The notes: a model not told the origin generated them from the letters alone. DNA of 64,000 bases from an uncultured Chloroflexia bacterium (GCA_963720375.1 CAVRFM010000006.1:4594-68593), one strand, 5' to 3'; shown: positions 3,584-60,730, counted from the first letter of the stretch. Program-made: numbers and translations.

Positions 3584-6500
3584 ATGTCAGAACCCGGAAA
3601 TATTATGCGGCTAATCATCGGAGTTCTCCTACTCCCTCTCTTAGTGATGATGCTTCTGCTGATGACTCCTCCTCCCCCTGCCATGGCGGGTACCATTTCT
3701 GGCGGCTTCACCACCCTGACAGCTTCTCCCATGAACATAACTTGTTTTACAGTCGATCCAACAACAGGATTAATGTACGGACAGGGGGATCAGAGTAGCA
3801 CCAACTATTACAGATATGATCCCTCATCAAACCTGTGGTCTACGCTGGCGTCCTGTCCCATCTCCTCGGGGAACAATGGCGGTGCTACCTATATGGATGG
3901 CAAAATATATAACAGTTATTGCACTCATACCGACATGATGGTATACGATATCGCATCCAACACATGGTCAACAATAGCTGGGGGACTGCAGAGCGGAAAC
4001 ATCGCAAATGATGGAACAGATATCTACGTTTCGGCAAATAACTCCTTCAAGAAATGGGATATCAGCGCCAGCCAGTGGGTATCACTCACTGCCACAACCA
4101 CTCAAGCCTGGGGTGGCTTACAATACCATAATGGTTATTTCTATTCTCACGCGGGTAATGGATCCACTTCTTTTAAGAGATATAGTGTCGCCACCGATAC
4201 CTGGGAAAATCTGACCGCTGTCCCGGGTGGAGCGGTCCTTGGTTCGGCAATATTCGATGCCTACTACTACTGTATGGGCTCGTACGGCGGGACAAACCTG
4301 TACTCCTATGACCTGGGCGCCGGAGAGTGGAACAACACTCTGACGCTCCCTTTTACCATTAACGACACCTCTATAGTCGTCTACAATAATTCGTTATATA
4401 TTGTTCAGGGAGAGGCCGGGACTGGCTTTACAAAGTTCACTCCCAATAATCCTATCCTCTCAAGCATCGAAGGAACTTCAATTGCCTATACCATTGGTGA
4501 TGGAGCTGTTGTGATCACCTCAACTATCGTCGGGGCTGATAATGATGACACCAATTTTGAAAGCGGGACCGTTTCGATCACCGGTAATTTCGAAACCGGA
4601 AAGGATGTCTTAGCTTTTGTTGATCAAAACGGTATCTCGGGGAGCTGGAATTCCATAACCGGAGTGCTGACACTCACCGGTTCGGCGACCATTGCCAACT
4701 GGAATACCGCCTTAAGAAGTGTGACTTACTCCAATAATTCCTTAGCTTCAACAGAAAACACGCGGACCGTTTCTTTTCAGGTTAGAGACGGGGAGCAAAA
4801 TTCCAATGTTCAGACAAGAAGTATCGTTGTTACCGTTGCACCCGCCGTGACGCTGACCTCTACGGCCACCTCTCCCACGAATACCTCGCCTATACCCATG
4901 ACGGCCACCTTCAGCGAGGCGGTCACCGGGTTTGTCATCGGCGATATCACCGTGGGCAATGGCACAGCCGACAACTTCGTGGCCGTGAGCGGCACGGTCT
5001 ACACCTTCGATGTGACTCCTTCCGGGCAGGGCGCGGTCACCGTGGATGTGGCTGCCGGCGTGGCCCAGGATGCCGCTCTTAACAACAATACCGCGGCTAC
5101 TCAGTTCAGCATTACCTATGACAGCGTGGCCCCCACGGTCACGCTGACCTCTACGGCCACTTCTCCCACCAAGGTCTCGCCCATCCCCATGACGGCCACC
5201 TTCAGCGAGGCGGTCACCGGGTTTGTCATCGACGATATCACCATGGGCAACGGCGCAGCCGGCAACTTCGTGGCAGTGAGCAGCACCGTCTACACCTTCG
5301 ATGTGACTCCTTCCGGGCAGGGCGCGGTCATCTGTCGATGTGGCTGCCGGCGTGGCCCAGGATGCTGCTCTTAACCCCAATACCGCCGCTACCCAGTTCA
5401 GCATTACCTATGACAGCACCTCACCCACAGTGACGCTGACCTCTACGGCTTCTTCACCCACCAAGACCTCGCCCATCCCCATGACGGCCACCTTCAGCGA
5501 AGCGGTCACCGGCTTTGTCATCGGCGATATCACCGTGGGCAACGGCACTGCCTCTAACTTCGTGGCGGTGAGCGCCACCATCTACACCTTCGATGTCACT
5601 CCCTCCGGGCAGGGCGCAGTCACCGTGGATGTAGCTGCCGGCGTGGCCCAGGATGCCGCTCTTAACAACAATACCGCGGCCACTCAGTTCAGCATTACCT
5701 ATGACAGCACCTCACCCACCGTGACGCTGACCTCTACGGCTTCTTCACCCACCAAGACCTCGCCCATCCCCATGACGGCCACCTTCAGCGAGGCGGTCAC
5801 CGGGTTTGTCATCGGCGATATCACCGTGGGCAACGGCACTGCCTCCAACTTCGTGGCGGTGAGCGCCACCATCTACACCTTCGACGTCACTCCCTCCGGG
5901 CAGGGCGCAGTCACCGTGGATGTAGCTGCCGGCGTGGCCCAGGATGCCGCTCTTAACAACAATACCGCGGCCACCCAGTTCAGCATTACCTATGACAGCA
6001 CCTCACCCACCGTGACGCTGACCTCTACGGCTTCTTCACCCACCAAGACCTCGCCTATCCCCATGACGGCCACCTTCAGCGAGGCGGTCACCGGGTTTGT
6101 CATCGACGATATCACCGTGGGCAACGGCACTGCCTCCAACTTCGTGGCGGTGAGCGCCACCGTCTACACCTTCGATGTCACTCCCTCCGGGCAGGGCGCG
6201 GTGACTGTGGATGTAGCTGCCGGCGTGGCCCAGGATGCCGCTCTTAACAACAATACCGCGGCCACCCAGTTCAGCATTACCTATGACAATCTCCCGACCA
6301 TAACTTCCTTCACGGCGACCTCGACTGACGAGGGCGATGTGGTGATCATCACCGGCACCGACTTCACCGGGGCAACGGCAGTCAAGTTTGGGGACACGGA
6401 TGCCTTAAGCTTCACTGTCGATTCGGACACCCAGATCACCGCTGTGGTAGGCCATGGTAGCAGCGGGAAGATAACCGTGACCACTGATGGCGGCACTGCC

Positions 6501-6644
6501 ACCTACGCCGACGACTACACCTCACCTGCATCACCTGCAAGACCAGTCAACTGGTGGGTGATTGGCAGCATCATTGGCGGGGTCATTCTGATCGGTGCGA
6601 TTGCATGGTGGCTGATGGTCTTGCGCCCCCGCAGAGCAGGATGA
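3584..6644 (+). CDS. Large surface protein: signal peptide, Kelch-like propeller, cadherin-like domain, 5 bacterial Ig-like repeats, IPT/TIG domain, C-terminal TM anchor; +1 frameshift near 5331
   Basis: AAGGAG RBS before ATG 3584; GG..Y.YD..W repeats; 97-aa repeats; C-terminus NWWVIGSIIGG...RPRRAG. ORFs 3497..5374 and 5340..6644 are one gene. Confidence 0.8.
4847..6290 (+). repeat. Five tandem 291-nt coding repeats (Ig-like domains)
   Basis: Repeat starts at 4847, 5138, 5430, 5721 and 6012 (periods 291, 292, 291, 291). Confidence 0.9.
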
Positions 6645-6890
6645 ACGTCGCCCAGCCTTACCGAAGAGATCGGCACAAGGGAGTGGAGCACTGATTGAGA
6701 GCTCTATTGGGGTATCCTGGGTATTCCGCTGCGTCGCTGCAGCCAGTCTGGCAGGTATGGTGGTATTCAACGTGTTTATGCGGAGGATGTCCCGCTAGGA
6801 TCGCGTCAGGTCATTATCTGCTGATTCGCCAAGTTCCGTGAGTGCCAGGTCCCCGGAAGCTGTCTACTATGTCCACACTGTTGTCATTGC

Positions 6891-7950
6891 TGTAAGTGTT
6901 ACGTAATTCGAGGACAGAATTCAATGAATTGTGCCGGTGTTTTGCCTCCCAGTGCTTGATGCGGACGGTGGTGGTTATAGTAGACCAGGTACTGCATGAG
7001 CTCATCTTTGAATTGCTCGATCGAGTCAAAGGTTGTTTCATGCAAGAGATCCTCTTCAAGAGTTCTCCAAAAGCGCTCCACCTTGCCGTTGGCCTGAGGA
7101 CGATACGGTCGGGTGTAGCGGTGAGTAATGCCCAGTTCTGTGAGCATGCGTTCAAATGGATGCGAGGCCTTCTGCTTGGAATCGCGGGTGCCCACCTCAG
7201 GACCATTATCTGTGAGCACTTCTTTGAACCGGAGTGTATAGCGGTCAGCCAGGATGTTCAGACAGCGTAGAGCGGCAAACATCACAGTGAGTGCCTTGAT
7301 ATCATCGACCACCTCAGCCCAAGCCACGCGCGTGCAGGAGTCGATGACACAGACCAGGTAACGCCGCTTGCTCTCGTTCAGGACGAGGCATTTGGAGAGA
7401 TGATGGCAGTCGACATGTGCCAACTCCCCAGCTTTCTCCTTGATTATGGTGCGTTTGGCTTCTTTCATGACGGGTCGTAATCGGTTCAACCCCTGGCGCT
7501 TGAGGATGGTGTACACCCCTGATGGCGAGGGTGTCAACTCACCTAGCTTTGGCCTGAGGACACTCACGATCTCATAGCGGTTCATCCCCCTCTCGCGCAG
7601 TGTCCTGACCTGCTCCTCAACAAGGTCGGGAGCTCGGCGGGTTTTCCATTTGGGTCCCCGTTTACGCGGTAGCAGATCCTCCTCTTTCCCACTGTGAAGA
7701 TAGCGATTGTAATATTTGCGGAAGCTCCTCCGGTCTGTGTCGTGGAAGGCATAGAACTCCTGGGCAAAGCGAAACCGTGGGTGCTTCCCAGCCTTGACCA
7801 ATTCATACTCCCGAATCAGGAATCGGTACTTCTGAAGGTAGTTCCTCTTAATGGTCTCATCTTGACTGTTGTTCCTCATCGACGAAAAGCCTCCTTCCCA
7901 GCACATGCTGGTTAGTAGCATTTTCGTCCCCGAAATATGTAACATCTACA
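6891..7950 (-). mobile_element. IS481-family insertion sequence, copy 1 (1060 bp, TGT...ACA ends, 5-bp TSD ATTGC)
   Basis: Imperfect terminal IRs TGTAGATGTTACAT / TGTAAGTGTTACGT; ATTGC at 6886-6890 and 7951-7955. Confidence 0.9.
6899..7879 (-). CDS. IS481-family DDE transposase
   Basis: HVD..D..TDNGPE..HRYTRPYRPQANGKVERF..YN..RPHQALGGKTP; AGGAGG RBS before MRNNSQ. Confidence 0.92.
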   Translation of the reverse strand: MRNNSQDETIKRNYLQKYRFLIREYELVKAGKHPRFRFAQEFYAFHDTDRRSFRKYYNRYLHSGKEEDLLPRKRGPKWKTRRAPDLVEEQVRTLRERGMNRYEIVSVLRPKLGELTPSPSGVYTILKRQGLNRLRPVMKEAKRTIIKEKAGELAHVDCHHLSKCLVLNESKRRYLVCVIDSCTRVAWAEVVDDIKALTVMFAALRCLNILADRYTLRFKEVLTDNGPEVGTRDSKQKASHPFERMLTELGITHRYTRPYRPQANGKVERFWRTLEEDLLHETTFDSIEQFKDELMQYLVYYNHHRPHQALGGKTPAQFIEFCPRIT

Positions 7951-8042
7951 ATTGCGAGGAGGCCTTCATCAGAAGGACGACGAAGCAATCTCGGGGTGGT
8001 GCTTCTTCACCGGAAGCTGATTCTTATGCAGTCAAGAAGGGT

Positions 8043-8072: not shown

Positions 8073-8094
8073 TTCCCAAAATTGAATAAGAGAC

Positions 8095-8210
8095 GCAGGG
8101 GTGCCCCGACGGTGACTAGGGGCTTAATTGGGTAGCAAGTCCGGTGAGATTCCGGAGCAGGCCCGCCTGCTGTAACTCGCCTTAGGCGAGAAGCCAGAAC
8201 GCCCACCCCT
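8095..8210 (+). ncRNA. Cobalamin riboswitch
   Basis: GGTG..TTAATTGGG..TCCGGTGAGATTCCGGAGC..GCCCGC.TGCTGTAA..hairpin..AAGCCAGAACGCC, upstream of btuF/cob genes. Confidence 0.85.
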
Positions 8211-8335
8211 ATCCGTCCTGAAGCCTCCGCTGGGAAAGGGGGTGGGACTATGACCCGGGCACCGTGATAATCCCCTTGGCCTTCCGGACAAGGGGATTTA
8301 TTTTTTCCGGTTTCCAAGCTATTGAGGAGGTTCAA

Positions 8336-9250
8336 TTGAAGAGATTAATTTCTATTCTATTTTTATTTCTGTTGCTGCTTATAGCGCTTCCTGCATCGGC
8401 TTTGAGATGTGGCTCTGAGCCAACGGCCATCACTGCCGTGGACGATGCGTCGAGAGAGGTCCACATTGCACAAACGCCCCAGAGGGTGGTCTCTCTGGCA
8501 CCCAGCATCACGGAGATCCTCTTTGCTGCCGGTCTTGGCGATAAGGTGGTTGGCGTCACTGACGACTGCGACTACCCTGATGCAGCCAAGGCCAAGCCTA
8601 AAGTCGGCGGGTATTTCACTACCAGCCTGGAGGAGATCCTGGATAAGAACCCGGACCTCATCCTGACGGACGGCTATGATCCGGTGACGCAGCAGCTTGA
8701 GGGGTTGGACATCCCCGTGCTCGTTCTTCAGCCGAATGACATCGACGGTATCTTCAAGGACATCAATCTGGTGGGCAAGGTGATGAACAAGGAAAAGGAG
8801 GCAGCCAGTCTGGTGGACAGCCTCCAACAACGGCTGGACAAAGTGGCTGAAATTAAAGCCGGCGCAACCGGCAGTCCGACTGTGTTTTACGAAATAGATG
8901 CTACCGACCCGACCAAGCCCTGGACTGCAGGGCCGGGCTCGTTTGCGGATATCCTGATTTCCCTGGCGGGTGGCAGCAACATCGTCACGGGGGGCGGGAG
9001 CTGGCTGCAAATCAGCCTTGAGGACCTGCTCTCTGCCGACCCGGATATCATCATCCTGGGCGACTACCCCTATGTGACTCCGGAGCAGGTGGAGGCGAGA
9101 AGTGGCGTCTGGCAGGATCTGACGGCAGTCAAGCTGGGAAAGGTCTATGCAGTCAGCGACCCCAGCCTGACCAGCCGCCCCGGGCCCCGCATCATCGATG
9201 GGCTGGAGGAGATTGCCAGAATGATCCACCCTGAGTTGTTCCCTTCCTAG
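8336..9250 (+). CDS. btuF: Cobalamin ABC transporter substrate-binding protein
   Basis: QRVVSLAPSITEILFA, VGVTDDCDYP, SRPGPRIIDGLE; TTG start after GAGGAGG. Confidence 0.88.
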   Translation: MKRLISILFLFLLLLIALPASALRCGSEPTAITAVDDASREVHIAQTPQRVVSLAPSITEILFAAGLGDKVVGVTDDCDYPDAAKAKPKVGGYFTTSLEEILDKNPDLILTDGYDPVTQQLEGLDIPVLVLQPNDIDGIFKDINLVGKVMNKEKEAASLVDSLQQRLDKVAEIKAGATGSPTVFYEIDATDPTKPWTAGPGSFADILISLAGGSNIVTGGGSWLQISLEDLLSADPDIIILGDYPYVTPEQVEARSGVWQDLTAVKLGKVYAVSDPSLTSRPGPRIIDGLEEIARMIHPELFPS

Positions 9251-12524: not shown

Positions 12525-12612
12525 TGTCATTCCCGCGCATGCTATCATGTCATTGCGAGGCGCGCAAGCGAGGAATCCAGTGTCTGTAGGGGCGCTTCGC
12601 GAAGCGCCCTCA
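12525..12612. repeat. REP-like palindrome cluster
   Basis: TGTCATT...GGAATCC plus GTAGGGGCGCTTCGCGAAGCGCCC. Confidence 0.7.
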
Positions 12613-14559: not shown

Positions 14560-14700
14560 GTCATAGTTGCAAGCCTCTGTGTTTGTAATAGCCACGGCCT
14601 TGTAGAACTTCAGGCTATCCCCTTTCTATCCAGGCTGAGGTTGGGTGGTATAATCGTTGAGAGCCAATCATTTTTGACAAGGACATCGGCAGGAATAGTT

Positions 14701-15018
14701 ATGGAGACCGCAGTCACTGTATTCTCGGTTGTTTGGTGTCTCGTGGTTCTTTTCTTCATATATCGCATGTGGAAAGCCCACGAATTGAGGATTGGCATAA
14801 TGAACGATGACCTTGATACCTATATGAGGCTGCCCTCCTATGGTGAGATGGTCTTCAAGTTCTGGAGACCGTGGTCCTCGTTCATCGAGGAGACTCTAGA
14901 GGGCACCCCGGAAGAAGAAGCAACATCGCTTGATACCAGGCAGACGGACGAGGTGATTGTCCCCGGTGAGCACGACCCCGAATCTCCTTCAGGGGCCTTC
15001 CTCAACTCTCAACCCTGA
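14701..15018 (+). CDS. Small hypothetical protein with an N-terminal TM helix and acidic tail
   Basis: ATG 14701 follows a site and TATAAT; lies between two full sites. Confidence 0.6.
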   Translation: METAVTVFSVVWCLVVLFFIYRMWKAHELRIGIMNDDLDTYMRLPSYGEMVFKFWRPWSSFIEETLEGTPEEEATSLDTRQTDEVIVPGEHDPESPSGAFLNSQP

Positions 15019-15172
15019 TAAAGCCAACGGGCAAGGCTTAGTAGAAAGACCTCACCCCACCATCGCCTTGTAGGACTTCAGGCTGTCTCCCCTTTGTATC
15101 CAGGCTGAGGTTCGGATGGTATAATGTCGCAGAGGATTCCAGCCTAATAAACAGAGGCAGGCGAATTTGGAG

Positions 15173-15367
15173 ATGGCTATCATGAGCACCTTTCGGATTC
15201 TCAAGAAAGCGGCAAGAGACATCTATAAGTGGCTAATGAAATACAGCGGCATGACAATGATCATAGATAACGTGGAAGAAAGACGCCGTAAACGAGAAAG
15301 CCTCAATCATTCTGAAGAGCCTTCCGATACCCAATCTACTGCAGACCCTCCATTAAAAGGTAAATAG
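15173..15367 (+). CDS. Small hypothetical protein
   Basis: ORF follows a site and TATAAT; no recognised motif. Confidence 0.4.
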   Translation: MAIMSTFRILKKAARDIYKWLMKYSGMTMIIDNVEERRRKRESLNHSEEPSDTQSTADPPLKGK

Positions 15368-15423
15368 GCTCATTACTGCACAGGGTTAGTAAATTTCACC
15401 TGGACCAGTTCTCGGAGGGCAGG

Positions 15424-16881
15424 TCAATTTCCCTGTTCATCCTCTTTGATGCCAGCCAGGCTCTTCGCTGTTTTCTGCTTACTCTTAATGTCGACCAGGC
15501 GGGATATCATGATCCTCTGTGCCTGTGGCGAACCGGCACCGTGCATGGATTCAGTAAGATATCCTACTGCTGCAGTACCGAGTGTTATATTTTCGATAAG
15601 CCGGAGGATACGCATCCTGTTTTCCGTTGGGATATCGTCCCTCCCTTTGCAATATTTTCTTATCCACTCGCCTACGTCTGCTGATCTCATATCCTCTTCA
15701 GAGGGGAGGGTAACCAGGAGACCGCCTGCGATATCCTGCGCAAGCCTGGCTATTTCATAAGGGAACCGTGTCACATTCTGTTTGTGTACATTTGCGAGGA
15801 GCGTATTAACGTAGTAAGTGCCGCTGGGCTCAGGGTGCCCTTCAGAGGCGCAGGCAATACATCCGCAGTAGAGCGTTTCATTAAGATGATTCATCTCGAT
15901 GATTTTATCTTTCACGTGGGAAGCCTTTTCGATACCATTGTATTCTGCAATCGTCTGTGTCGCGCCTATGAGAACATCGCCGACTCCGACCTTGCAGGCA
16001 TAGCTTTGCCGGTGATACGAGGCGAATTGCTCCACCAGCTGGCCGGAAAAGTCATATTCCTTGTACATGAATACCCGCTCCCATGGAACGAAGACATCAT
16101 TAAATATTATCAACGCTTCGTGTCCTCCGAAATTGATGTTGCCTCGATCGATTTTGCACCCTTCCAGCTTCCTGGTATCGCATGACTGGCGTCCTATGAC
16201 ATAGATTATACCTTTGGTGTCGCTAGGCACAGCAAAGGAAACCGCGTAATCCTTGTCCTCTTCCCTCATGGAAATCGTGGGCATTACAATGACCTCATGG
16301 GAATTCACAGCCCCCGTCTGATGGGCTTTGGCCCCGCGTACCACAATACCGTCCTTTCTTTCTTCGACTACCCTGAGGTACTGGTCAGGATCGGCCTGCT
16401 TGTGCGGCGGCAGGGAACGGTCGCCCTTTGGATCAGTCATGGCTCCGTCGCAGACAAGATCGTTCTCCTGGACATACTCCAGATACTTTAAGAATCTTTT
16501 GTTGTATTCAGTACCGTACTTTGCGTCTATGTCATATGTTGTCATTGACAGGGCATTCAAGGCGTCAATTCCCACGCATCTCTGGAAACAGCATCCTGTC
16601 AGGGAACCAAGCAGCCTGCCCATCTTGCTTTTCTTGACAAGGTCATCAACGCTTTGATGAATATGGGTGAACCGGTTGATTTTTGCCCCTGTGATGTGGG
16701 AAGTCGCTGTCATAATATCTTCATATTTCGGATTACGAGCAAGGGCATAAGTCATGGAAATCGCATTCAGGGATGGTCTGATTATGGGATCATCCACGAC
16801 ATTTTTCACTCTTTTGCCGAACATGTATACTACCAGTTCGAGCTTTCTCAAACTTTCGATGTATTCTTGCGGAGTTTTCAT
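15424..16881 (-). CDS. abfD: 4-hydroxybutyryl-CoA dehydratase (HpaB/AbfD family)
   Basis: CFQRCVG Fe-S motif, DGAMTDPKGDRS, VRGAKAHQTG, YHRQSY, MHGAGSPQAQ. Confidence 0.9.
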   Translation of the reverse strand: MKTPQEYIESLRKLELVVYMFGKRVKNVVDDPIIRPSLNAISMTYALARNPKYEDIMTATSHITGAKINRFTHIHQSVDDLVKKSKMGRLLGSLTGCCFQRCVGIDALNALSMTTYDIDAKYGTEYNKRFLKYLEYVQENDLVCDGAMTDPKGDRSLPPHKQADPDQYLRVVEERKDGIVVRGAKAHQTGAVNSHEVIVMPTISMREEDKDYAVSFAVPSDTKGIIYVIGRQSCDTRKLEGCKIDRGNINFGGHEALIIFNDVFVPWERVFMYKEYDFSGQLVEQFASYHRQSYACKVGVGDVLIGATQTIAEYNGIEKASHVKDKIIEMNHLNETLYCGCIACASEGHPEPSGTYYVNTLLANVHKQNVTRFPYEIARLAQDIAGGLLVTLPSEEDMRSADVGEWIRKYCKGRDDIPTENRMRILRLIENITLGTAAVGYLTESMHGAGSPQAQRIMISRLVDIKSKQKTAKSLAGIKEDEQGN

Positions 16882-17188
16882 AAATCTTTTACTCTCCTTC
16901 GATAAATCTTTCTCCATAATTCAATGCCGCGTTGACCTGCCCCAAGTATTTGTACCACTTCTTAGGCCGCAGTTGCCAGCCTCCTCTGTGTTTGTAACAG
17001 CCACCGCCTTGTAGGACTTCAGGCTGTCCTCACCAATAGAGTGGACAGAGATGTCCAGCCTTGTCTTTTCTTCAGTATCAGCCAACCCCTTTTGTATCCA
17101 AGCTGAGGTTGTGGGTGTATCATGTCACTGAAGGCAATCTGCTGATGGTACTTCCGCTGCTAAATGGAAGGTAGAAAGGGGCTTTGCT

Positions 17189-17407
17189 ATGGCGAAGGGA
17201 ACAATCAAGAAACTAATTAGAGACAAGGGCTATGGGTTCATCCAAACTGAGGAGGGGAAAGAGCTTTTCTTTCACCGGAATCAGCTTCAAGGTGTGGACT
17301 ATTCTTCTCTCAAGGAAGGCCAAGAGGTAGAATACGAGGCTGGCACTGGGCGTGGTGACCGCCCAGAGGCTACCAAGGTGAAGCTACCACAACCCAAGAC
17401 TGAATAG
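17189..17407 (+). CDS. Cold-shock domain protein
   Basis: KGYGFI..LFFH RNP motifs. Confidence 0.9.
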   Translation: MAKGTIKKLIRDKGYGFIQTEEGKELFFHRNQLQGVDYSSLKEGQEVEYEAGTGRGDRPEATKVKLPQPKTE

Positions 17408-17521
17408 CACTCACCCCACCAGTGCTTTGTAGAACTTCAGACTGCCCGAGATAGTTTTGTGGTATAATGTCTCCATGGTGATTTTCCTATGAGAATTACT
17501 TCTGCGTGTACTTGAGGGTAA

Positions 17522-17665
17522 ATGGCTGCCAAAGGTGTTGTCCACCAAGCCCACCACTGGATGATAGACACTCTGCCTAAGAACGGCTTGTACCACGCCA
17601 TGTGCAGGAAGTGCGGCGCAGAAAAGGATTTTCCCCAGAGGAGCCTCGCTTCAGATTCAGTATAG
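17522..17665 (+). CDS. Small His/Cys-rich protein (possible Zn ribbon), 47 aa
   Basis: Manual translation MAAKGVVHQAHHWMIDTLPKNGLYHAMCRKCGAEKDFPQRSLASDSV; GAGGG RBS; fills a cassette. Confidence 0.55.
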   Translation: MAAKGVVHQAHHWMIDTLPKNGLYHAMCRKCGAEKDFPQRSLASDSV

Positions 17666-17943
17666 ATAGAAAGCCAGTTGCACCATCAGCCATAGAACCA
17701 CCTGACTTGAGTGGCACTTCTGTACATGATAGATGTGCCTGAGCCAGGCTCGTCCCAAGTCCCCTAGCGGTATCACTACAGGAACCCTGGGACAAGCCTT
17801 AACCTCCAGCATCACCCCGGCAGCACCCTGTAGAACTTCAGCCTGTCCTCATTGGTTGACATTCTCTATTGCCTGTGTGCTATTATCCTAGATGACTTCT
17901 ACATATAGGTATGTATAGAGTCGGAAGCAGGAAGGAGAGTGGC

Positions 17944-18090
17944 ATGGTCAAGAAGAGAGTGCGCAACCCGGTTACTCACAAATACTATGCCCAGCAGCAA
18001 AGGGATGGGAGACTGAGACGAGGTCAGTTCGTCGGTCTCTGGCATCCTCCCAAGAGAAAACCAAAGGAGGCCCAGATTCCGCAGGCTTAG
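17944..18090 (+). CDS. Small basic hypothetical protein, 48 aa
   Basis: MVKKRVRNPVTHKYYAQQQRDGRLRRGQFVGLWHPPKRKPKEAQIPQA; AAGGAG RBS; TTGACA...TATTAT upstream. Confidence 0.6.
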   Translation: MVKKRVRNPVTHKYYAQQQRDGRLRRGQFVGLWHPPKRKPKEAQIPQA

Positions 18091-18211
18091 GCCGCAATTC
18101 TCCCTACAGTCCTCTACTAAGCTATCTTTCCATCAAAGCTGAGGTTGGGGTGGTACAATGGTGGCAGGCGGGTCACACCAAGGAGAAGGTGCGGGAAGAA
18201 ATGGAGGACAG

Positions 18212-18712
18212 ATGGATAGCATCCTGGACGTGATTGTCTCACGAAGAAGTGTCAGGAAGTGGAAATCCGATGCGGTCTCTGATGGCGACATCAAGGACAT
18301 ACTCGAAGCGGCGATGAATGCCCCATCGGCGGTGAATGAGCAAGCATGGCAGTTCGTGGTGCTGAACGGTAAGATGCTCGAAGACTTTGTGAAAATCAAC
18401 GGCAATACTCCCAAAGGCTCACCCGTGGGGATCCTGGTTTGCGGCGACAAGAAGCTGGACAAGCTCGGGGGATTCTATCTGCATGACTGTTGTGCTGCCA
18501 CGCAGAACATTCTTCTCGCGGTTCATGCTAAAGGACTGGGAGGAGTCTGGACTGCCATCTTCCCCAACGCTATTCCGGAAGTGCGCAAGCTGCTGAATCT
18601 GCCGGACCACGTCATCCCACTCGCCTTCGTTCCTTTTGGATACCCCGTCTCAGAGCGGCCCAAACCGGCCAGCCGATACGACGAAACGAAGGTGCACAGA
18701 AACGGCTGGTAG
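18212..18712 (+). CDS. Nitroreductase family protein
   Basis: SRRSVRKW, APSAVNEQAW, QNILLA..GLGGVW; GGAGG RBS. Confidence 0.9.
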   Translation: MDSILDVIVSRRSVRKWKSDAVSDGDIKDILEAAMNAPSAVNEQAWQFVVLNGKMLEDFVKINGNTPKGSPVGILVCGDKKLDKLGGFYLHDCCAATQNILLAVHAKGLGGVWTAIFPNAIPEVRKLLNLPDHVIPLAFVPFGYPVSERPKPASRYDETKVHRNGW

Positions 18713-19417
18713 GCTCTCCAGGTGCGGTGCTTAGCAGGACTTCAGGCTGTCCTGACCAATACCTTTCTGGAACTCTGAAACCATGCACATTATGTCCATA
18801 TCTACCAACCATCAACCTTTCCCCAAACGTCATGCTCGTGCATAGTAAACTTGACAGGTCTATGCAGGCATGTTACAATCACACCACGATATTCGTAGTG
18901 CGATGGGATATCCACTCCCACCCAACAAACAAAAGGAGGGAGGAGAAAGACAAGATCTGGAATACGGAAGGCTGCGGATATCCATTCACAGGAAGAGCAG
19001 CCTACTAACTAGATGGCTGGCAGTCAGTTCAATTTTATTGAAAGGGGGGTGAACATGACTCCGGGGTGTGAGTCGTGTTGCTGACTGACCAGCCATCCTT
19101 ATTTAGTTCAGATACATCAGAGCAAAATCTACGACTACGCGCTGCCATGCTTAGAGGATAAACCCGTTTGGACACCATCGCCTTGTAGAACTTCAGCCTG
19201 TCCTCCTTTCTGTCCAAGCTGAGGTTGTCTGACACAAAACTCCATGTAAGATAACTTCCCTGACAGCAAGCATTTACTGTGCCTTTACCATTCTTGTGCT
19301 AAGGTATACACAGGCGAGCAGATGGGGTCGATTGATGAAGCGGGTCGCAGATAGAACGAAGTCCCTGACAGGCTGTGCATACCTGATCAAGGGCCACAAA
19401 TAACATAGGAGGGCAAC

Positions 19418-19534
19418 ATGCGGCATGCACGTGAAGGTATGGGCTGGTGGGTAGGGTTGATGATCGGCATAGTGACGTTTCTTGTCTGGGCAGGGTCTAC
19501 TGAGCTAGTTGTCCGGGTTATCCCACACTTGTGA
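19418..19534 (+). CDS. 38-aa single-TM ORF, truncated relative of the SHOCT gene
   Basis: GGAGGG RBS; MRHAREGMGWWVGLMIG...; decayed SHOCT-coding sequence follows the stop. Confidence 0.4.
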   Translation: MRHAREGMGWWVGLMIGIVTFLVWAGSTELVVRVIPHL

Positions 19535-19984
19535 ACCACGGTGACTCAGGATCAGCGGGCAGGGGAAATGGTGCTTTGACAATAGCTAGAGGAACGCTAC
19601 GCCCGAAGAGAGATCACCAAGGAAGAATTCGACCGGATCAAGAAAGGTCTGTCATAGAGCACTACGAGGTATTGGAAACGCCTTAGAAAGACTCCCCCCA
19701 CGTCCTTTCTAAGCCAGAGAAGCCCATCTGTGAAGGTGGGCTTCTTCTATTCCCTGAATCCCAAACCCACCATCGCCCTGTAGAACTTCAGGCTGTCCTG
19801 AAAAACTCTAATCATTTTCTAAGCATCTCCTAATCCGGATTTAATGCAAGACCGGATGCCCTTCGGTAGAATGAAAGTGTCTTTGAGAGGTTATCCCCCT
19901 TTCTGAAGTGCCAAGTGACAGAAGTCGCATACCTTGTATCGATAGGGTAATACAATATTGGAATGGTGCAGAGGAGGTGTAGAC

Positions 19985-20233
19985 ATGATGTGGGAGCATT
20001 GGCATGAAGGTGTAGGTGCCTGCGGTGGTTGGGGTGTAGGATGGATTATTGGTCTATTCTTTCTGGCAGTCGTCGTTGGACTGATTACTTGGGGCATTGT
20101 GGTACTGGTAAGACACGGTAGATCAGGATCAGCGGGCAGGGGAAATGGTGCTTTGGCCATAGCCAGAGAACGCTATGCCCGAGGAGAGGTCTCCAAAGAA
20201 GAATTCGACCGGATCAAGAAAGACCTGTCGTAG
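19985..20233 (+). CDS. TM plus SHOCT-domain protein
   Basis: ALAIARERYARGEVSKEEFDRIKKDL; GGAGG RBS; hairpin terminator near 20257-20282. Confidence 0.85.
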   Translation: MMWEHWHEGVGACGGWGVGWIIGLFFLAVVVGLITWGIVVLVRHGRSGSAGRGNGALAIARERYARGEVSKEEFDRIKKDLS

Positions 20234-20508
20234 TTCACTCTGAAGCATGTCACCGAAGCCCATCTGCATAAGGTGGGCTTTCGTCATCTCCGTCTCCCCA
20301 GCACCGCCTTGTATGACTTCAGGTTGTCCTGAAAAACTCTAATCATCTTCTAAGCATTTTCCAATCCAGACCTAAGCTTAGCCCGGTATGCTGAGGGTGG
20401 CTTTGAGGAGAAGGAGAAGACACAGTGAAACAGACCGGCAAACTGGAACAGCAAGAGGCGTATCAGAGCATCATCAAGGGCCACAAATAACAAGACCAGG
20501 AGGGCAAC

Positions 20509-20622
20509 ATGCGACATGAAAGCGGAGGTATGGGTTGGTGGGTGGGCTTGACGATCGGTATAGTGACGTTTCTTATCTGGGCAGGGTCTACGGCGCTGAT
20601 TGTCCGGGTTATCGGACGCTAG
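20509..20622 (+). CDS. 37-aa single-TM ORF, paralog of 19418..19534
   Basis: MRHESGGMGWWVGLTIGIVTFLIWAGSTALIVRVIGR; GGAGGG RBS. Confidence 0.4.
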   Translation: MRHESGGMGWWVGLTIGIVTFLIWAGSTALIVRVIGR

Positions 20623-20757
20623 TGAACCATGGTGACTCAGGATCAGCAGGCTGAGGTTGGGGGTGTATGGTGTATAATAGTGCAAGGTGCGATGGCACGG
20701 GCCGCGCATGGATGCAGCCGATGGCGTGGATAAGCTGATGCCCGTGAGGAGGTAGAC

Positions 20758-21072
20758 ATGAAGGACCATCCCCACTGCTATCATATCAACTTCGCTCATG
20801 AGACAGAGACATGCTGCTGGTGCTCTGACATACGCAAGCTCAAATTCGGGCAGGGTCACCTTGACCGTGACGTTGGCATGACGATTCCGCTAGTGAGCGT
20901 CTGGTGGTGGCGGTATAATCCCAAAATGTATGCCTTGTACGAGCACGTCAAGCAGTTTGGCACACCTGAGACCGCGCATGGACCGTATGGCATCCAAGAT
21001 GGTTTGTTTGTCGAGTACGCTGACGAAGACCTATGCTCGATGAGAAAGCAACCTTTGGAAGGAGTACCTTAG
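20758..21072 (+). CDS. Hypothetical protein
   Basis: GAGGAGG RBS; lies between sites; no recognised family. Confidence 0.6.
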   Translation: MKDHPHCYHINFAHETETCCWCSDIRKLKFGQGHLDRDVGMTIPLVSVWWWRYNPKMYALYEHVKQFGTPETAHGPYGIQDGLFVEYADEDLCSMRKQPLEGVP

Positions 21073-21255
21073 GAGACTCAGGAGAAGCCGAAGACGTCAA
21101 AGCAGTCCTTTTACCTCACCCCACCAGCGCCTTGTAGAACCTCACGCTGTCTCCTCCTTCTGTGTCCAGGCTGAAGTTGACACCCTCCGTCGCATCGTGA
21201 TACTGTCCGTTGGGGCTCCCACCCTGCGGCCCAAGAATCGATACACGGGGTTTTC

Positions 21256-23961: not shown

Positions 23962-24022
23962 ATTGGGCGCTTCGCGAAGCCCCTAACACCCGTTGTCATT
24001 CCCGTGCAAACGGGAATCCAGA
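23962..24022. repeat. REP-like palindrome cluster
   Basis: GGGCGCTTCGCGAAGCCC plus ATTCCC-GTGCAAAC-GGGAAT at 23998-24017, between convergent genes. Confidence 0.75.
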
Positions 24023-24055
24023 ACCAATTGAAAAGGGGGCTGTGATAACCAGGCG

Positions 24056-27184: not shown

Positions 27185-27204
27185 CGCCTCAACAACCCTG
27201 CATT

Positions 27205-27288
27205 TCCCTCTCCCTTTGATGGGAGAGGGCTGGGGTGAGGGTGATGTTCTTACGCCCATTGTCATTCCCGTGCAAACGGGAATCCAGG
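27205..27288. repeat. REP-like palindrome cluster
   Basis: CCCTCTCCC..GGGAGAGGG plus ATTCCC-N8-GGGAAT at 27264-27283. Confidence 0.75.
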
Positions 27289-27313
27289 AGGGTGGCGACT
27301 TGATGGAGGTGTA

Positions 27314-34084: not shown

Positions 34085-34285
34085 AGACCCCCCGTCCTTC
34101 GCTCAGGGTGACATGTTGCCCACTGTGTCATTCTGAGTATAGCTGAAGAATCTCGAGGTGTGAGGTTCAGCATAATCGGTAGATTAGCTACTATGTATGT
34201 GTCATTCCCACGCAAGTGGGAATCCAGAACCGAATTGAATAAGGGCCGCATCTCCAGGTTCCTGCTTCCGCAGAAATGACATATG
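34085..34285. repeat. REP-like palindrome cluster
   Basis: TGTCATTCTGAG..GAAGAATCTC; ATTCCC-N8-GGGAAT at 34204-34223; TTCCTGCTTCCGCAG.AATGAC. Confidence 0.7.
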
Positions 34286-47279: not shown

Positions 47280-47407
47280 CCGTAGGGGGCGGTTTTTCAA
47301 ACCGCCCCGATACGTCCGAACTCACCCCACGCTTCTCCTTGAGGGCGACTCACCCTTCGCTGGAAGAGCCCCCACAGAGATTGCTTCGCCGCTGCGCTCC
47401 TCGCAAT
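47280..47407. repeat. REP-like cluster; its last unit is the IS target
   Basis: GTAGGGGGCGGTTTTTCAAACCGCCCC and GAGATTGCTTCG..CTCCTCGCAAT. Confidence 0.7.
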
Positions 47408-48467
47408 TGTAGATGTTACATATTTCGGGGACGAAAATGCTACTAACCAGCATGTGCTGGGAAGGAGGCTTTTCGTCGATGAGGAACAACAGTCAAGATG
47501 AGACCATTAAGAGGAACTACCTTCAGAAGTACCGATTCCTGATTCGGGAGTATGAATTGGTCAAGGCTGGGAAGCACCCACGGTTTCGCTTTGCCCAGGA
47601 GTTCTATGCCTTCCACGACACAGACCGGAGGAGCTTCCGCAAATATTACAATCGCTATCTTCACAGTGGGAAAGAGGAGGATCTGCTACCGCGTAAACGG
47701 GGACCCAAATGGAAAACCCGCCGAGCTCCCGACCTTGTTGAGGAGCAGGTCAGGACACTGCGCGAGAGGGGGATGAACCGCTATGAGATCGTGAGTGTCC
47801 TCAGGCCAAAGCTAGGTGAGTTGACACCCTCGCCATCAGGGGTGTACACCATCCTCAAGCGCCAGGGGTTGAACCGATTACGACCCGTCATGAAAGAAGC
47901 CAAACGCACCATAATCAAGGAGAAAGCTGGGGAGTTGGCACATGTCGACTGCCATCATCTCTCCAAATGCCTCGTCCTGAACGAGAGCAAGCGGCGTTAC
48001 CTGGTCTGTGTCATCGACTCCTGCACGCGCGTGGCTTGGGCTGAGGTGGTCGATGATATCAAGGCACTCACTGTGATGTTTGCCGCTCTACGCTGTCTGA
48101 ACATCCTGGCTGACCGCTATACACTCCGGTTCAAAGAAGTGCTCACAGATAATGGTCCTGAGGTGGGCACCCGCGATTCCAAGCAGAAGGCCTCGCATCC
48201 ATTTGAACGCATGCTCACAGAACTGGGCATTACTCACCGCTACACCCGACCGTATCGTCCTCAGGCCAACGGCAAGGTGGAGCGCTTTTGGAGAACTCTT
48301 GAAGAGGATCTCTTGCATGAAACAACCTTTGACTCGATCGAGCAATTCAAAGATGAGCTCATGCAGTACCTGGTCTACTATAACCACCACCGTCCGCATC
48401 AAGCACTGGGAGGCAAAACACCGGCACAATTCATTGAATTCTGTCCTCGAATTACGTAACACTTACA
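47408..48467 (+). mobile_element. IS481-family insertion sequence, copy 2 (1060 bp, TSD GCAAT)
   Basis: Matches copy 1 in the opposite orientation; GCAAT at 47403-47407 and 48468-48472. Confidence 0.9.
47479..48459 (+). CDS. IS481-family DDE transposase
   Basis: Same translation as copy 1. It reads on the + strand although the ORF track labels it minus. Confidence 0.92.
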   Translation: MRNNSQDETIKRNYLQKYRFLIREYELVKAGKHPRFRFAQEFYAFHDTDRRSFRKYYNRYLHSGKEEDLLPRKRGPKWKTRRAPDLVEEQVRTLRERGMNRYEIVSVLRPKLGELTPSPSGVYTILKRQGLNRLRPVMKEAKRTIIKEKAGELAHVDCHHLSKCLVLNESKRRYLVCVIDSCTRVAWAEVVDDIKALTVMFAALRCLNILADRYTLRFKEVLTDNGPEVGTRDSKQKASHPFERMLTELGITHRYTRPYRPQANGKVERFWRTLEEDLLHETTFDSIEQFKDELMQYLVYYNHHRPHQALGGKTPAQFIEFCPRIT

Positions 48468-48650
48468 GCAATGACATTTGAACAGGGGCGCTTCGCGAAG
48501 CACCCCTAAACCTGTTGTCATTCCCGTGCAAACGGGAACCCAGAAGGGAATGCCCATAATTCCCTCTACCTTTGATGGGAGAGGGCTAGGGTGAGGGTGA
48601 TGTTTTCCCCTCCCTCTATCTCCCTCCCGCCAAGGGAGGGAGAATGACCA
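48468..48650. repeat. REP-like palindrome cluster
   Basis: GGGGCGCTTCGCGAAGCACCCC, ATTCCC-N8-GGGAAC and CCCTC..GGGAGAGGG stems. Confidence 0.7.
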
Positions 48651-50509: not shown

Positions 50510-50706
50510 GAGGGCGCTTCGCAAAGCGCCCCTACAAGTTCGCTCTCATGTCATTCCCGTGCAAACGGGATTCCGGAAACGTCAGTAGCTTAGGCATACG
50601 GTGGATTCCTGCTCCCCGTTTTCACCGGGACAAGCTTCGCAGGAATCCGGAGGGAATGCCAGTAATCCCCTCTCCCTGCGACGGGAGAGGGCTGGGGTGA
50701 GGGTGA
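50510..50706. repeat. REP-like palindrome cluster
   Basis: Same three families, including the extended GGATTCCTGCTCCCCGTTTTCAC..GACAAG variant. Confidence 0.7.
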
Positions 50707-50736
50707 TTTGTGAAGGGCTCTCGGTCAAGCAGGAAC

Positions 50737-51893: not shown

Positions 51894-52818
51894 ATGAAGA
51901 ACCGGAGATTCAGCATGGCGGATGCCATTGGCAATACCCCGCTCATAGCATTGCGGAGCCTGAACGGAAACTCCAGGGTGAATATCCTGGGGAAACTGGA
52001 GGGCGCCAACCTCACCGGTTCGGTGAAAGACCGTCCGGCCCAGTACATGATCCGCAAGGCGGAGGAATCCGGCGAGCTCACCGAAGGGAAGACCATTATC
52101 GAGGCCACATCGGGGAACATGGGCATTGCTCTGGCAGCCATAGGCGCTGCCAGGGGACACCGGGTCAAGCTTTTCATGCCCGAATGCGTTAGCGTAGAGA
52201 GGCAGCGCGTACTTACAGCCCTGGGCGCTGAAATTATACTCACCCCGGCAAAGGAAGGCACTGACGGGGCCATCAGAGGAGTCCGCCATCTCCTGGAAAA
52301 GGAACCGGAGAAGTACTACATGCCCAATCAGTTCGATAATGAGGACAATGTTCTGGCCCATTATGAAACCACCGGCCCTGAGATATTCTCCCAGACCAGG
52401 GGCAAAGTGGATGTCTTCGTGGCCGGCATGGGCACGACCGGCACGCTGATGGGGACAGGGAAATACCTCAAAGAGAAAAAACCGGAGATCACTATCGTGG
52501 GAGTGGAGCCTACTATAGGGCACACGATACAGGGCCTGAAGAACATGAAGGAGTCCATAGTGCCTAAGATCTACCGGCCTAAGGTGTGGGATGAGAAGGT
52601 GACGGTTGAGGATGAGGATGCCTTCGAAATGACCAGGCTGCTGGCCACCAGGGAAGGTCTCTTTCTGGGGATGTCGAGCGGGGCGGCGGTGGCCGGAGCC
52701 TTGAAGGTTTCGAAAAATCTGGACCGCGGCACCATCGTAGTCATCCTGCCCGGACCGCGGGGACCGCTACCTCAGCACCACGCTGTTCAGGTCCATCTGC
52801 GCCAAGTGTCCGCCTTAA
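51894..52818 (+). CDS. PLP-dependent cysteine synthase (CysK/CysM family), frameshift near 52752
   Basis: IGNTPLI, GSVKDRPA, EATSGNMG, GMGTTGT, GMSSGA; removing one base restores PDRGDRYLST...SICAKCPP*. Confidence 0.9.
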
Positions 52819-55030: not shown

Positions 55031-55133
55031 GAACCCCTTCCGGATGAAGCAAATATTTTGTATATTGTATCAGATTTGCGCAAAGATTGACGGCGTTCTA
55101 TCGTCCATCTCATATCAGCGATCATCTTCAAAT

Positions 55134-55232
55134 GTCATTCCCGTGCAAACGGGAATCCAGAAATGCGGTGGCTGGGCATGCGGTGGATTCCTGCTCCCCG
55201 TTTTCACGGGGACAAGTTTCGCAGGAATGACA
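55134..55232. repeat. REP-like palindrome cluster
   Basis: ATTCCC-N8-GGGAAT at 55137-55156 plus the extended GGATTCCTGC...GCAGGAATGAC variant. Confidence 0.75.
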
Positions 55233-58374: not shown

Positions 58375-58440
58375 AGATTCCTGCTCCCGCAGGAATGACA
58401 TTTGCCATCTTGTGTCATTCCCGTGCAAACGGGAATCCAC
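58375..58440. repeat. REP-like palindrome cluster
   Basis: ATTCCTGC..GCAGGAATGAC and ATTCCC-N8-GGGAAT at 58417-58436. Confidence 0.7.
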
Positions 58441-58453
58441 ATATGTGCTGCCC

Positions 58454-60393: not shown

Positions 60394-60547
60394 TAATCAC
60401 CCCCTCGCCCTCTGTTTGGTGACTCCACACCAAACGAAGAGCAAAGCATGCCTATGCCTAAATGTAACGCTTTCTCTCCGGCATGGCAACCTCTCTCCCG
60501 TTATTCCAACGTCGTAGGTGCGCTTAGCGCAGTGCCCCTCCACCTGC

Positions 60548-60730
60548 TGTCATTCCCACGAACGTGGGGATCCAGGAGGGGATATCTGCAATTCCTTCTC
60601 CCTTCGATGGGAGAGGGCTAGAGTGAGGGTGATGTTTCCCCCTCCCTCTGCCTCCCTCCCGCCAGGGGAGGGAGAACGGATGGATTCCTGCTTTCGCAGG
60701 AATGACAGATGCAAAAACGGGAATGACATG
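60548..60730. repeat. REP-like palindrome cluster
   Basis: Same families as at 3020-3200 and 48468-48650. Confidence 0.7.

Follow-up and report, generated by a model that had tools for sequence, protein, structure and literature searches.

The 64,000-nucleotide stretch of DNA analysed here (the window) comes from an uncultured Chloroflexia bacterium and contains two copies of an insertion sequence (IS) that interrupts a dispersed repeat at one fixed position. This is probably an active IS481-like element whose DDE transposase picks its target by sequence. The targeting habit extends beyond this genome and belongs to a large clade that crosses phyla.

The element is 1,060 bp long and is bounded by 28-bp TGTA...TACA terminal inverted repeats, which match at 21 of 28 positions. 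Copy 1 lies at 6891-7950 on the minus strand, with the terminal inverted repeats TGTAGATGTTACATATTTCGGGGACGAA and TGTAAGTGTTACGTAATTCGAGGACAGA, and copy 2 lies at 47408-48467 on the plus strand. The genome to which the window belongs is a 2.48-Mb bin in 28 contigs. A search of the whole of it finds exactly three copies, all intact and 100% identical, the third being on another contig (G000:C11:69159-70218). Between copies 1 and 2 the identity extends over 1,080 bp if the common flank is included. Neither solo IS ends nor MITE derivatives were found in this genome; this absence, together with the identity and intactness of the three copies, points to recent activity. Searches of a plasmid collection with the element, at both the DNA and the protein level, returned no matches.

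Read in the orientation of the IS, the junctions of copy 1 are GAGATTGCTTCG-tcgtccttctgatgaaggc-CTCCTCGCAAT[IS]GCAATGACAACAG and those of copy 2 are GAGATTGCTTCG-ccgctgcg-CTCCTCGCAAT[IS]GCAATGACATTTG. These are exactly the flanks given in the initial annotation, with GCAAT duplicated at both ends, and they share the pattern GAGATTGCTTCG-loop-CTCCTCGCAAT[IS]GCAATGACA. The loop is 19 nt long at copy 1 and 8 nt long at copy 2, and the DNA outside the repeat is unrelated between the two on both sides. Copy 3 has the junctions GTCATTGC[IS]ATTGCGAGGAG-cacagcga-CGAAGCAATCTC; bond and duplication are unchanged, but the repeat is reversed relative to the IS. All three copies split the repeat TGTC-ATTGC-GAGGAG...CGAAGCAATCTC at one bond and have a 5-bp duplication, ATTGC/GCAAT. 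Insertion at the same base had been proposed for copies 1 and 2, and the third genomic copy extends it; that the insertions are independent, as was also proposed, is supported by the differing loops, the unrelated outer DNA and the reversed third copy.

At copy 1 the TGTC head of the repeat occupies 6882-6885 on the plus strand, where TGTCATTGC runs directly into TGTAAG (6882-6896). The same five bases, ATTGC, abut both ends of the IS, at 6886-6890 and 7951-7955 (plus strand), and the remainder of the split repeat, ATTGCGAGGAG-GCCTTCATCAGAAGGAC-GACGAAGCAATCTC, occupies 7951-7992 (plus strand). At copy 2 the body side comes first (47377-47407, plus strand, GAGATTGCTTCGCCGCTGCGCTCCTCGCAAT), its final five bases being one copy of the duplication. 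The two duplications there are at 47403-47407 and 48468-48472. The second GCAAT and the GACA repeat head together span 48468-48476 (plus strand) and are followed by a mosaic of other repeats.

Empty sites also occur. Genome-wide there are 15 empty and three filled YGTCATTGCGAG sites (3/18), which supplies the count of empty and filled repeats suggested in the initial annotation. An empty paralogue at C14:22836-22934 spans the junction and is 95% identical over 99 bp to the flanks of copy 1 joined with one duplication, so removal of the IS and one GCAAT does restore the repeat, as had been stated. With about 17 positions of this kind in 2.48 Mb, three insertions made at random would all fall on one of them with a probability of about 3e-16.

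The IS is absent from the contigs of the public read runs that were searched. One contig from a peat-metagenome run (X2) joins 6885 to 7951 and was considered as an empty allele. Its identity is about 94% and its loose ends match C14, so it most likely represents the C14 paralogue. A related strain in the same run has 6798 joined to 7990 by 19 other bases, and is without both the repeat composite of about 126 bp and the IS (window 6799-7989). Because this strain does not have it, the repeat composite looks like an insertion itself.

The transposase gene lies at 6899-7879 on the minus strand in copy 1 and at 47479-48459 on the plus strand in copy 2, and encodes 326 amino acids in both. A longer listed reading frame of 348 amino acids starts within the left inverted repeat. 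The true start is almost certainly the ATG preceded by GGAGG, which gives 326 residues, because nearly all of the 120 homologues listed have this length. The stop codon sits within the right inverted repeat. The protein matches the integrase core models rve, rve_2 and rve_3 of Pfam, with weak helix-turn-helix matches in its first 150 residues. The motifs HVD, TDNG and GKVER were located, and the putative DDE triad is D157, D224 and E268.

The element is closest to the IS481 family. The best NCBIfam model is IS481 (NF033577), with 206.3 bits (E 6.9e-61) against a curated cut-off of 224, and the runner-up family, IS3, reaches only 84 bits. The transposase is encoded in a single frame with no programmed frameshift, a trait that separates IS481 from IS3. 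The description as a REP-targeting IS481 therefore stands as regards targeting and the best family; since 206 bits falls just below the curated threshold, the element is better called IS481-like. Members of the IS481 family in ISfinder are about 0.95-1.3 kb long, with inverted repeats starting 5'-TGT and target duplications of 4-15 bp. The present element fits these traits, with its 1,060 bp, its TGT...ACA ends, its 5-bp duplication and its one reading frame; the inverted repeats begin TGTAGATG... and TGTAAGTG..., each with 5'-TGT. It resembles IS481 of Bordetella pertussis and the ISfinder family generally in its length of about 1 kb, its single DDE reading frame, its TGT...ACA ends and its short duplication. 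Canonical IS481 makes a 6-bp duplication at the short palindrome NCTAGN, whereas the present clade duplicates 5 bp within a 12-bp non-palindromic site on a repeat family.

The target repeat has the form TGTC-ATTGC-GAGGAGCGCAGCGACGAA-GCAAT-CTC. The arms are 5 bp long and are separated by 12-42 nt in the occupied subtype, loops overall ranging from 8 to 42 nt. The occupied subtype is not a true hairpin or palindrome and has only a 5-bp closing stem. Compared with shuffled sequences, the DNA folding z-scores of 36-nt target units are +0.08, +0.93 and +1.21, and that of the copy 1 unit is -1.1; an NTS-type unit scores -5.24. The "REP palindrome" of the initial annotation is thus a REP-like, TGTC-tagged repeat in which only the arms ATTGC...GCAAT pair, and which folds no better than shuffles do.

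Canonical members of the superfamily of CGTC/TGTC-tagged REPs have stems of 8-9 bp and loops of 4-5 nt (Di Nocera et al. 2013, PMC3733652). The target resembles these repeats in its unpaired TGTC head, which stands beside a stem starting with A-T (ATTGC, closed by GCAAT), in the ATT at the start of its body and in the closing AAT followed by a C-rich tail (PMC3733652). It differs in that it forms no stable hairpin with such a stem and loop: the stem is 5 bp, there are 12-42 nt between the arms and there is no excess folding energy. A consensus for the Neisseria NTS/dRS3 repeats and a motif for Ssn-related repeats have been published (Chenal et al. 2025, PMC11893778). The latter, HGTCWYN(0-2)YYVSBRHN(0-5)WNVSBRGN(0-2)RNCYNB, has no match in ATTGC-type units, and NTS-type units of the window's genome match it.

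Target units sit in mosaics with canonical hairpins such as TGTCATTCCCGTGCAAACGGGAATCCAG, which is nearly the Neisseria NTS/dRS3 consensus. Eight hairpins of this type occur in the window, at 23981-24023, 27247-27289, 34187-34229, 48503-48545, 50536-50578, 55120-55162, 58400-58442 and 60535-60577. The whole genome has 53 NTS-type hairpins, roughly half of which fall on the contig of the window; the IS occupies none of the 53.

Other repeats share these regions. Several copies of the ATTGC-type repeat (G000:C6:1788-1841, C14:17664-17723 and C25, about 52292-52345) have a GTAG-tagged palindrome, GTAGGGGCGGTTCGCGAACCGCCC, nested in their loop, so one repeat family has been inserted into another. 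Related palindromes are found in the window at 12590, 37981, 48486, 49679 and 51775. Four copies of CTCTCCCTTTGATGGGAGAGGGCTGGGGTGAGGGTGAT adjoin hairpin repeats in the mosaics (27198-27248, 48554-48604, 50660-50710 and 60586-60636); we take these to resemble BoxC-like or "triplex" repeats. The window's contig (C6) and C14 have about ten times the density of TGTC-headed repeats found in the rest of the bin. Their composition also deviates slightly, with a GC content of 0.55 versus about 0.52 and a tetranucleotide correlation of 0.93 versus about 0.98. The two contigs may represent a variable or accessory part of the genome, or may have been mis-binned.

Relatives of the element are widespread. 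Protein-guided searches yielded 16 loci from species genomes and 45 from metagenomes, with 55-92% amino acid identity. A further search, at the phylum level, picked up elements present in several copies in complete genomes that belong to another genus of Chloroflexota; only five copies per genome were looked at there, 17 in all. The ends of the relatives were placed by means of the inverted-repeat consensus. The hosts among species genomes include Zixibacteria, Thermodesulfobacteriota, Tenacibaculum/Joostella (Flavobacteriaceae), Chloroflexota, Ignavibacteria and Acutalibacteraceae. The clade comprises at least 2,230 protein clusters at E <= 1e-60, and among those listed nearly all proteins have 326 residues. 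Most homologues are on contigs of about 1.0-1.3 kb, as would be expected of a multi-copy element at which assemblies break.

About 75 related elements (55-92% amino acid identity) share the site consensus YGTC^ATTSC^GAG. They almost always abut ...CTCGCAAT[IS]GCAATGAC(A/G) or GTCATTGC[IS]ATTGCGAG..., and nearly all 17 copies in the complete genomes are at the equivalent site. Had further copies shown unrelated flanks, targeting would have been in doubt; the third copy and the relatives have the same junction. A perfect 5-bp duplication is present in 30 of the 35 loci that have one head and one body flank, and orientation relative to the repeat is unbiased (21 versus 14). In a position matrix of 54 body-side flanks, the duplication is followed by G (45/54), A (45/54) and G (38/54). 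On the head side GAC follows in 61 of 61 flanks, GAC itself having been the criterion by which these were sorted. Immediately outside the duplication the matrix has TC-N5-GA symmetry. The duplicated 5-mer matches the local variant of the repeat: GAAAT in Flavobacteriaceae, GGAAT in the other Chloroflexota genus and GCGAT at locus L048.

Mixed flanks occur in about a quarter of the metagenome loci (8 head/head and 4 stem/stem), in one of the 17 copies in complete genomes (L076) and in none of the three in the window's genome. They are tentatively attributed to recombination between IS copies or to chimeric assembly, which may affect metagenome contigs. Where copies lie in opposite orientations, recombination between them is expected to give such products and is a recognised cause of missing duplications (PMC11708052). 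Chimeric joins across a multi-copy element could yield them too. The duplicated 5-mer was also examined as a character that might track the phylogeny of the transposase, on which it is clustered (16 changes versus 24.8 in shuffles). This was set aside, much of the signal coming from near-identical copies within genomes and the label being confounded with the host's stock of repeats. Two copies in one complete genome (L075 and L091 in G146) have in their left flanks a fragment like the element's inverted repeat, GTAATTCGTTAACAGAAT, which suggests insertion beside older IS remnants.

The following mechanism is proposed. The transposase itself, probably by means of the helix-turn-helix region near its N-terminus, would read duplex DNA, and the IS would integrate at a site of about 12 bp, 5'-YGTC^ATTSC^GAG-3'. 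In the window's genome this site occurs almost only at the head of the dispersed TGTC-tagged, REP-like intergenic repeat. A cut with a 5-bp stagger around ATTSC would give the 5-bp duplication, and a transpososome with two-fold symmetry would fit the symmetry of TC-N5-GA. Because TC-N5-GA is symmetric, both orientations occur. Transposition itself would probably follow the copy-out-paste-in route of IS3 and IS481 relatives. The element would in this way land in "safe" intergenic DNA, and could do so in any host that has these widespread repeats.

A different model is that the transposase recognises the structure of the repeat, either as an extruded hairpin or cruciform or as single-stranded DNA at a fork. 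Every target has the complementary 5-bp arms ATTSC...GSAAT, and some insertions, though few, are found in genuine NTS-type hairpins (L020, the right flank of L076, L080 and L089). Palindromic units are also the insertion targets of IS1397 and other REP-targeting elements (Tobes & Pareja 2006, PMC1525189). The target unit, however, is no stabler than shuffled sequence, and the point of insertion does not shift as the loop varies from 8 to 42 nt.

The choice between repeat types also bears on this model. In four complete genomes of the other Chloroflexota genus there are 196 GAG-type heads and about 788 NTS-type ones, so that the GAG type makes up about 20% of ATTCC-headed repeats; body-side junctions, read by eye in these complete genomes, are of the GAG/GAA type in 13 of 16 (binomial P ~2e-7). 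In the window's genome three of about 17 ATTGC-GAG units are occupied, versus none of the 53 NTS-type hairpins, and the preference for ATTGC-type over ATTCC-type repeats is weak when taken alone, with three copies (P ~0.014). Stable hairpins with the same head are thus 3-4 times commoner than the target type, yet they are largely avoided in two independent lineages. Counting against the reading of sequence, one insertion (L081) is in an apparently non-repeat site, ATTAT-GAC. Because stable hairpins are avoided in both lineages, and because the best-conserved positions, GTC and GAG, lie outside the arms, we favour a transposase that would read sequence on duplex DNA over one that recognises hairpins. 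All targets also have the distal GSAAT arm, so the two readings are not fully separable; recognition of structure is nevertheless considered unlikely.

Targeting might alternatively be imposed by the host, if a repeat-binding protein or a repeat-nicking nuclease, such as an Ssn-type GIY-YIG enzyme, recruited the transposase or opened the site. Ssn nucleases of Neisseria and other bacteria do bind and cut related TGTC/CGTC-tagged repeats as single strands (Chenal et al. 2025, PMC11893778). This is very unlikely to be the explanation here, given that at least five phyla, whose proteomes differ greatly, keep the exact junction, that the target subtype falls outside the published Ssn-related motif and that a DDE transposase acting alone normally leaves a clean 5-bp duplication. 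As to a possible Ssn-type partner, the GIY-YIG proteins of the window's genome are UvrC and a small protein that is YhbQ-like by eye, and no repeat head was found within the first 1,700 bases of the contig carrying the small protein's gene; the candidate was rejected.

That there is no targeting at all, the shared flank belonging to the element or to a duplicated segment, or random insertions surviving only in neutral repeats, is scarcely credible: copies 1 and 2 do share identical flanks of eleven bases at one end and nine at the other, but the repeat at copy 3 is reversed, loops differ beside 100% identical IS copies, 15 empty sites and an empty paralogue exist, and survival bias cannot give the same phosphodiester bond at more than 60 independent junctions. 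The flank is therefore target rather than element, and the possibility raised in the initial annotation that it moves with the element is answered by its occurrence in either orientation and with loops of 8-42 nt.

Two further ideas were rejected. Guidance by an RNA is at odds with the little non-coding sequence in the element, which amounts to roughly 70 nucleotides at the 5' end only, with the lack of complementarity to the site by eye and with the classical duplication. Mimicry of the inverted repeat by the target was scored for the right end (8, P ~0.04) and the left end (6, P ~0.30), and is not significant after four comparisons.

A more speculative extension of sequence-directed targeting is that the IS481-like clade is functionally coupled to pan-bacterial TGTC-tagged repeats, with the non-hairpin "ATTSC-GAG" subclass serving as a dedicated landing pad and spreading along with the element. 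Perhaps the transposase of the element even creates or mobilises the pad, an idea suggested by a faint resemblance between the repeat head and the transposase-binding part of the inverted repeat (GTAATT-CGAGGA versus GTCATTGCGAGGA). We regard the landing pad as improbable; if it were real, one class of orphan REP-like repeats would gain its missing enzyme.

Insertion sequences that target REPs are established in the IS3, IS110, IS4, IS256 and IS5 families (Tobes & Pareja 2006, PMC1525189). No published case of REP targeting in the IS481 family was found in the searchable literature, where absence is not proof, and PMC1525189 does not include IS481. The "type 1 association" defined there, in which every copy is at the same position of an extragenic repeat, is seen in all three copies of the present element (Tobes & Pareja 2006, PMC1525189). 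In IS1397, ISKpn1 and ISPsy8 the transposase itself is regarded as the source of specificity, and for the first two experimental evidence suggests so (PMC1525189). The conservation of the junction across phyla suggests that the specificity of the present element may likewise reside in its transposase.

The closest parallels are IS1397, ISKpn1 and ISPsy8 of the IS3 family, which also have an rve-type DDE transposase and in which all copies occupy the same place within a dispersed intergenic repeat. They have two frameshifted reading frames, whereas the present element has one, and their targets are GTAG-type palindromic units of enterobacteria and pseudomonads, whereas the target here is TGTC-tagged and essentially without a hairpin. 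IS1397 inserts in the loop of the palindromic unit. The present insertion is at the boundary of head and body, and the habit spans many phyla, unlike that of the IS3-family REP elements.

Another group, ISPa11, ISPpu9/10 and IS621 (IS110/IS1111), is similar in that all copies occupy one REP position (PMC1525189). These elements have a DEDD recombinase and neither terminal inverted repeats nor a classical duplication. The present element differs in its DDE transposase, inverted repeats and 5-bp duplication, and it has almost no non-coding room for a guide. ISPa11, ISPpu9/10 and IS621 are guided by an RNA that they encode. The habit as such is thus already known from other families; what looks new is the family that shows it, a TGTC-tagged target that is not a hairpin, insertion between head and body and the reach across phyla.

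As far as the searchable literature goes, IS481 would join the list of repeat-targeting families. With one protein of 326 amino acids, a site of 12 bp and a 5-bp stagger that does not vary, the element offers a tractable model of nearly site-specific DDE integration. The clade also links a very abundant environmental IS to the TGTC/CGTC-tagged repeats of many phyla, whose origin is unexplained. For annotators, the flanking halves of the repeat should not be taken as part of the element, and assemblies of metagenomes can be expected to break at it.

Several other features of the window were observed. The end of IS copy 1 lies 131 bp upstream of a cobalamin riboswitch (Rfam RF00174, 38.4 bits) at 8082-8224, which precedes a reading frame at 8264-9250 whose translation resembles a periplasmic binding protein by eye. 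On the other side, a large reading frame ends at 6644, just ahead of the site of the repeat and IS, and contains five tandem 291-bp repeats (4839-6303). Its C-terminus has a hydrophobic stretch followed by basic residues, and it may encode a surface protein. Farther along, a 47-nt motif around CGCCTTGTAGAACTTCAGGCTGTC is scattered in nine copies over 14581-21159, spaced 400-1,900 bp apart, with longer paired repeats at 19407-20682. Together these may mark a tandem family of paralogous genes or cassettes.
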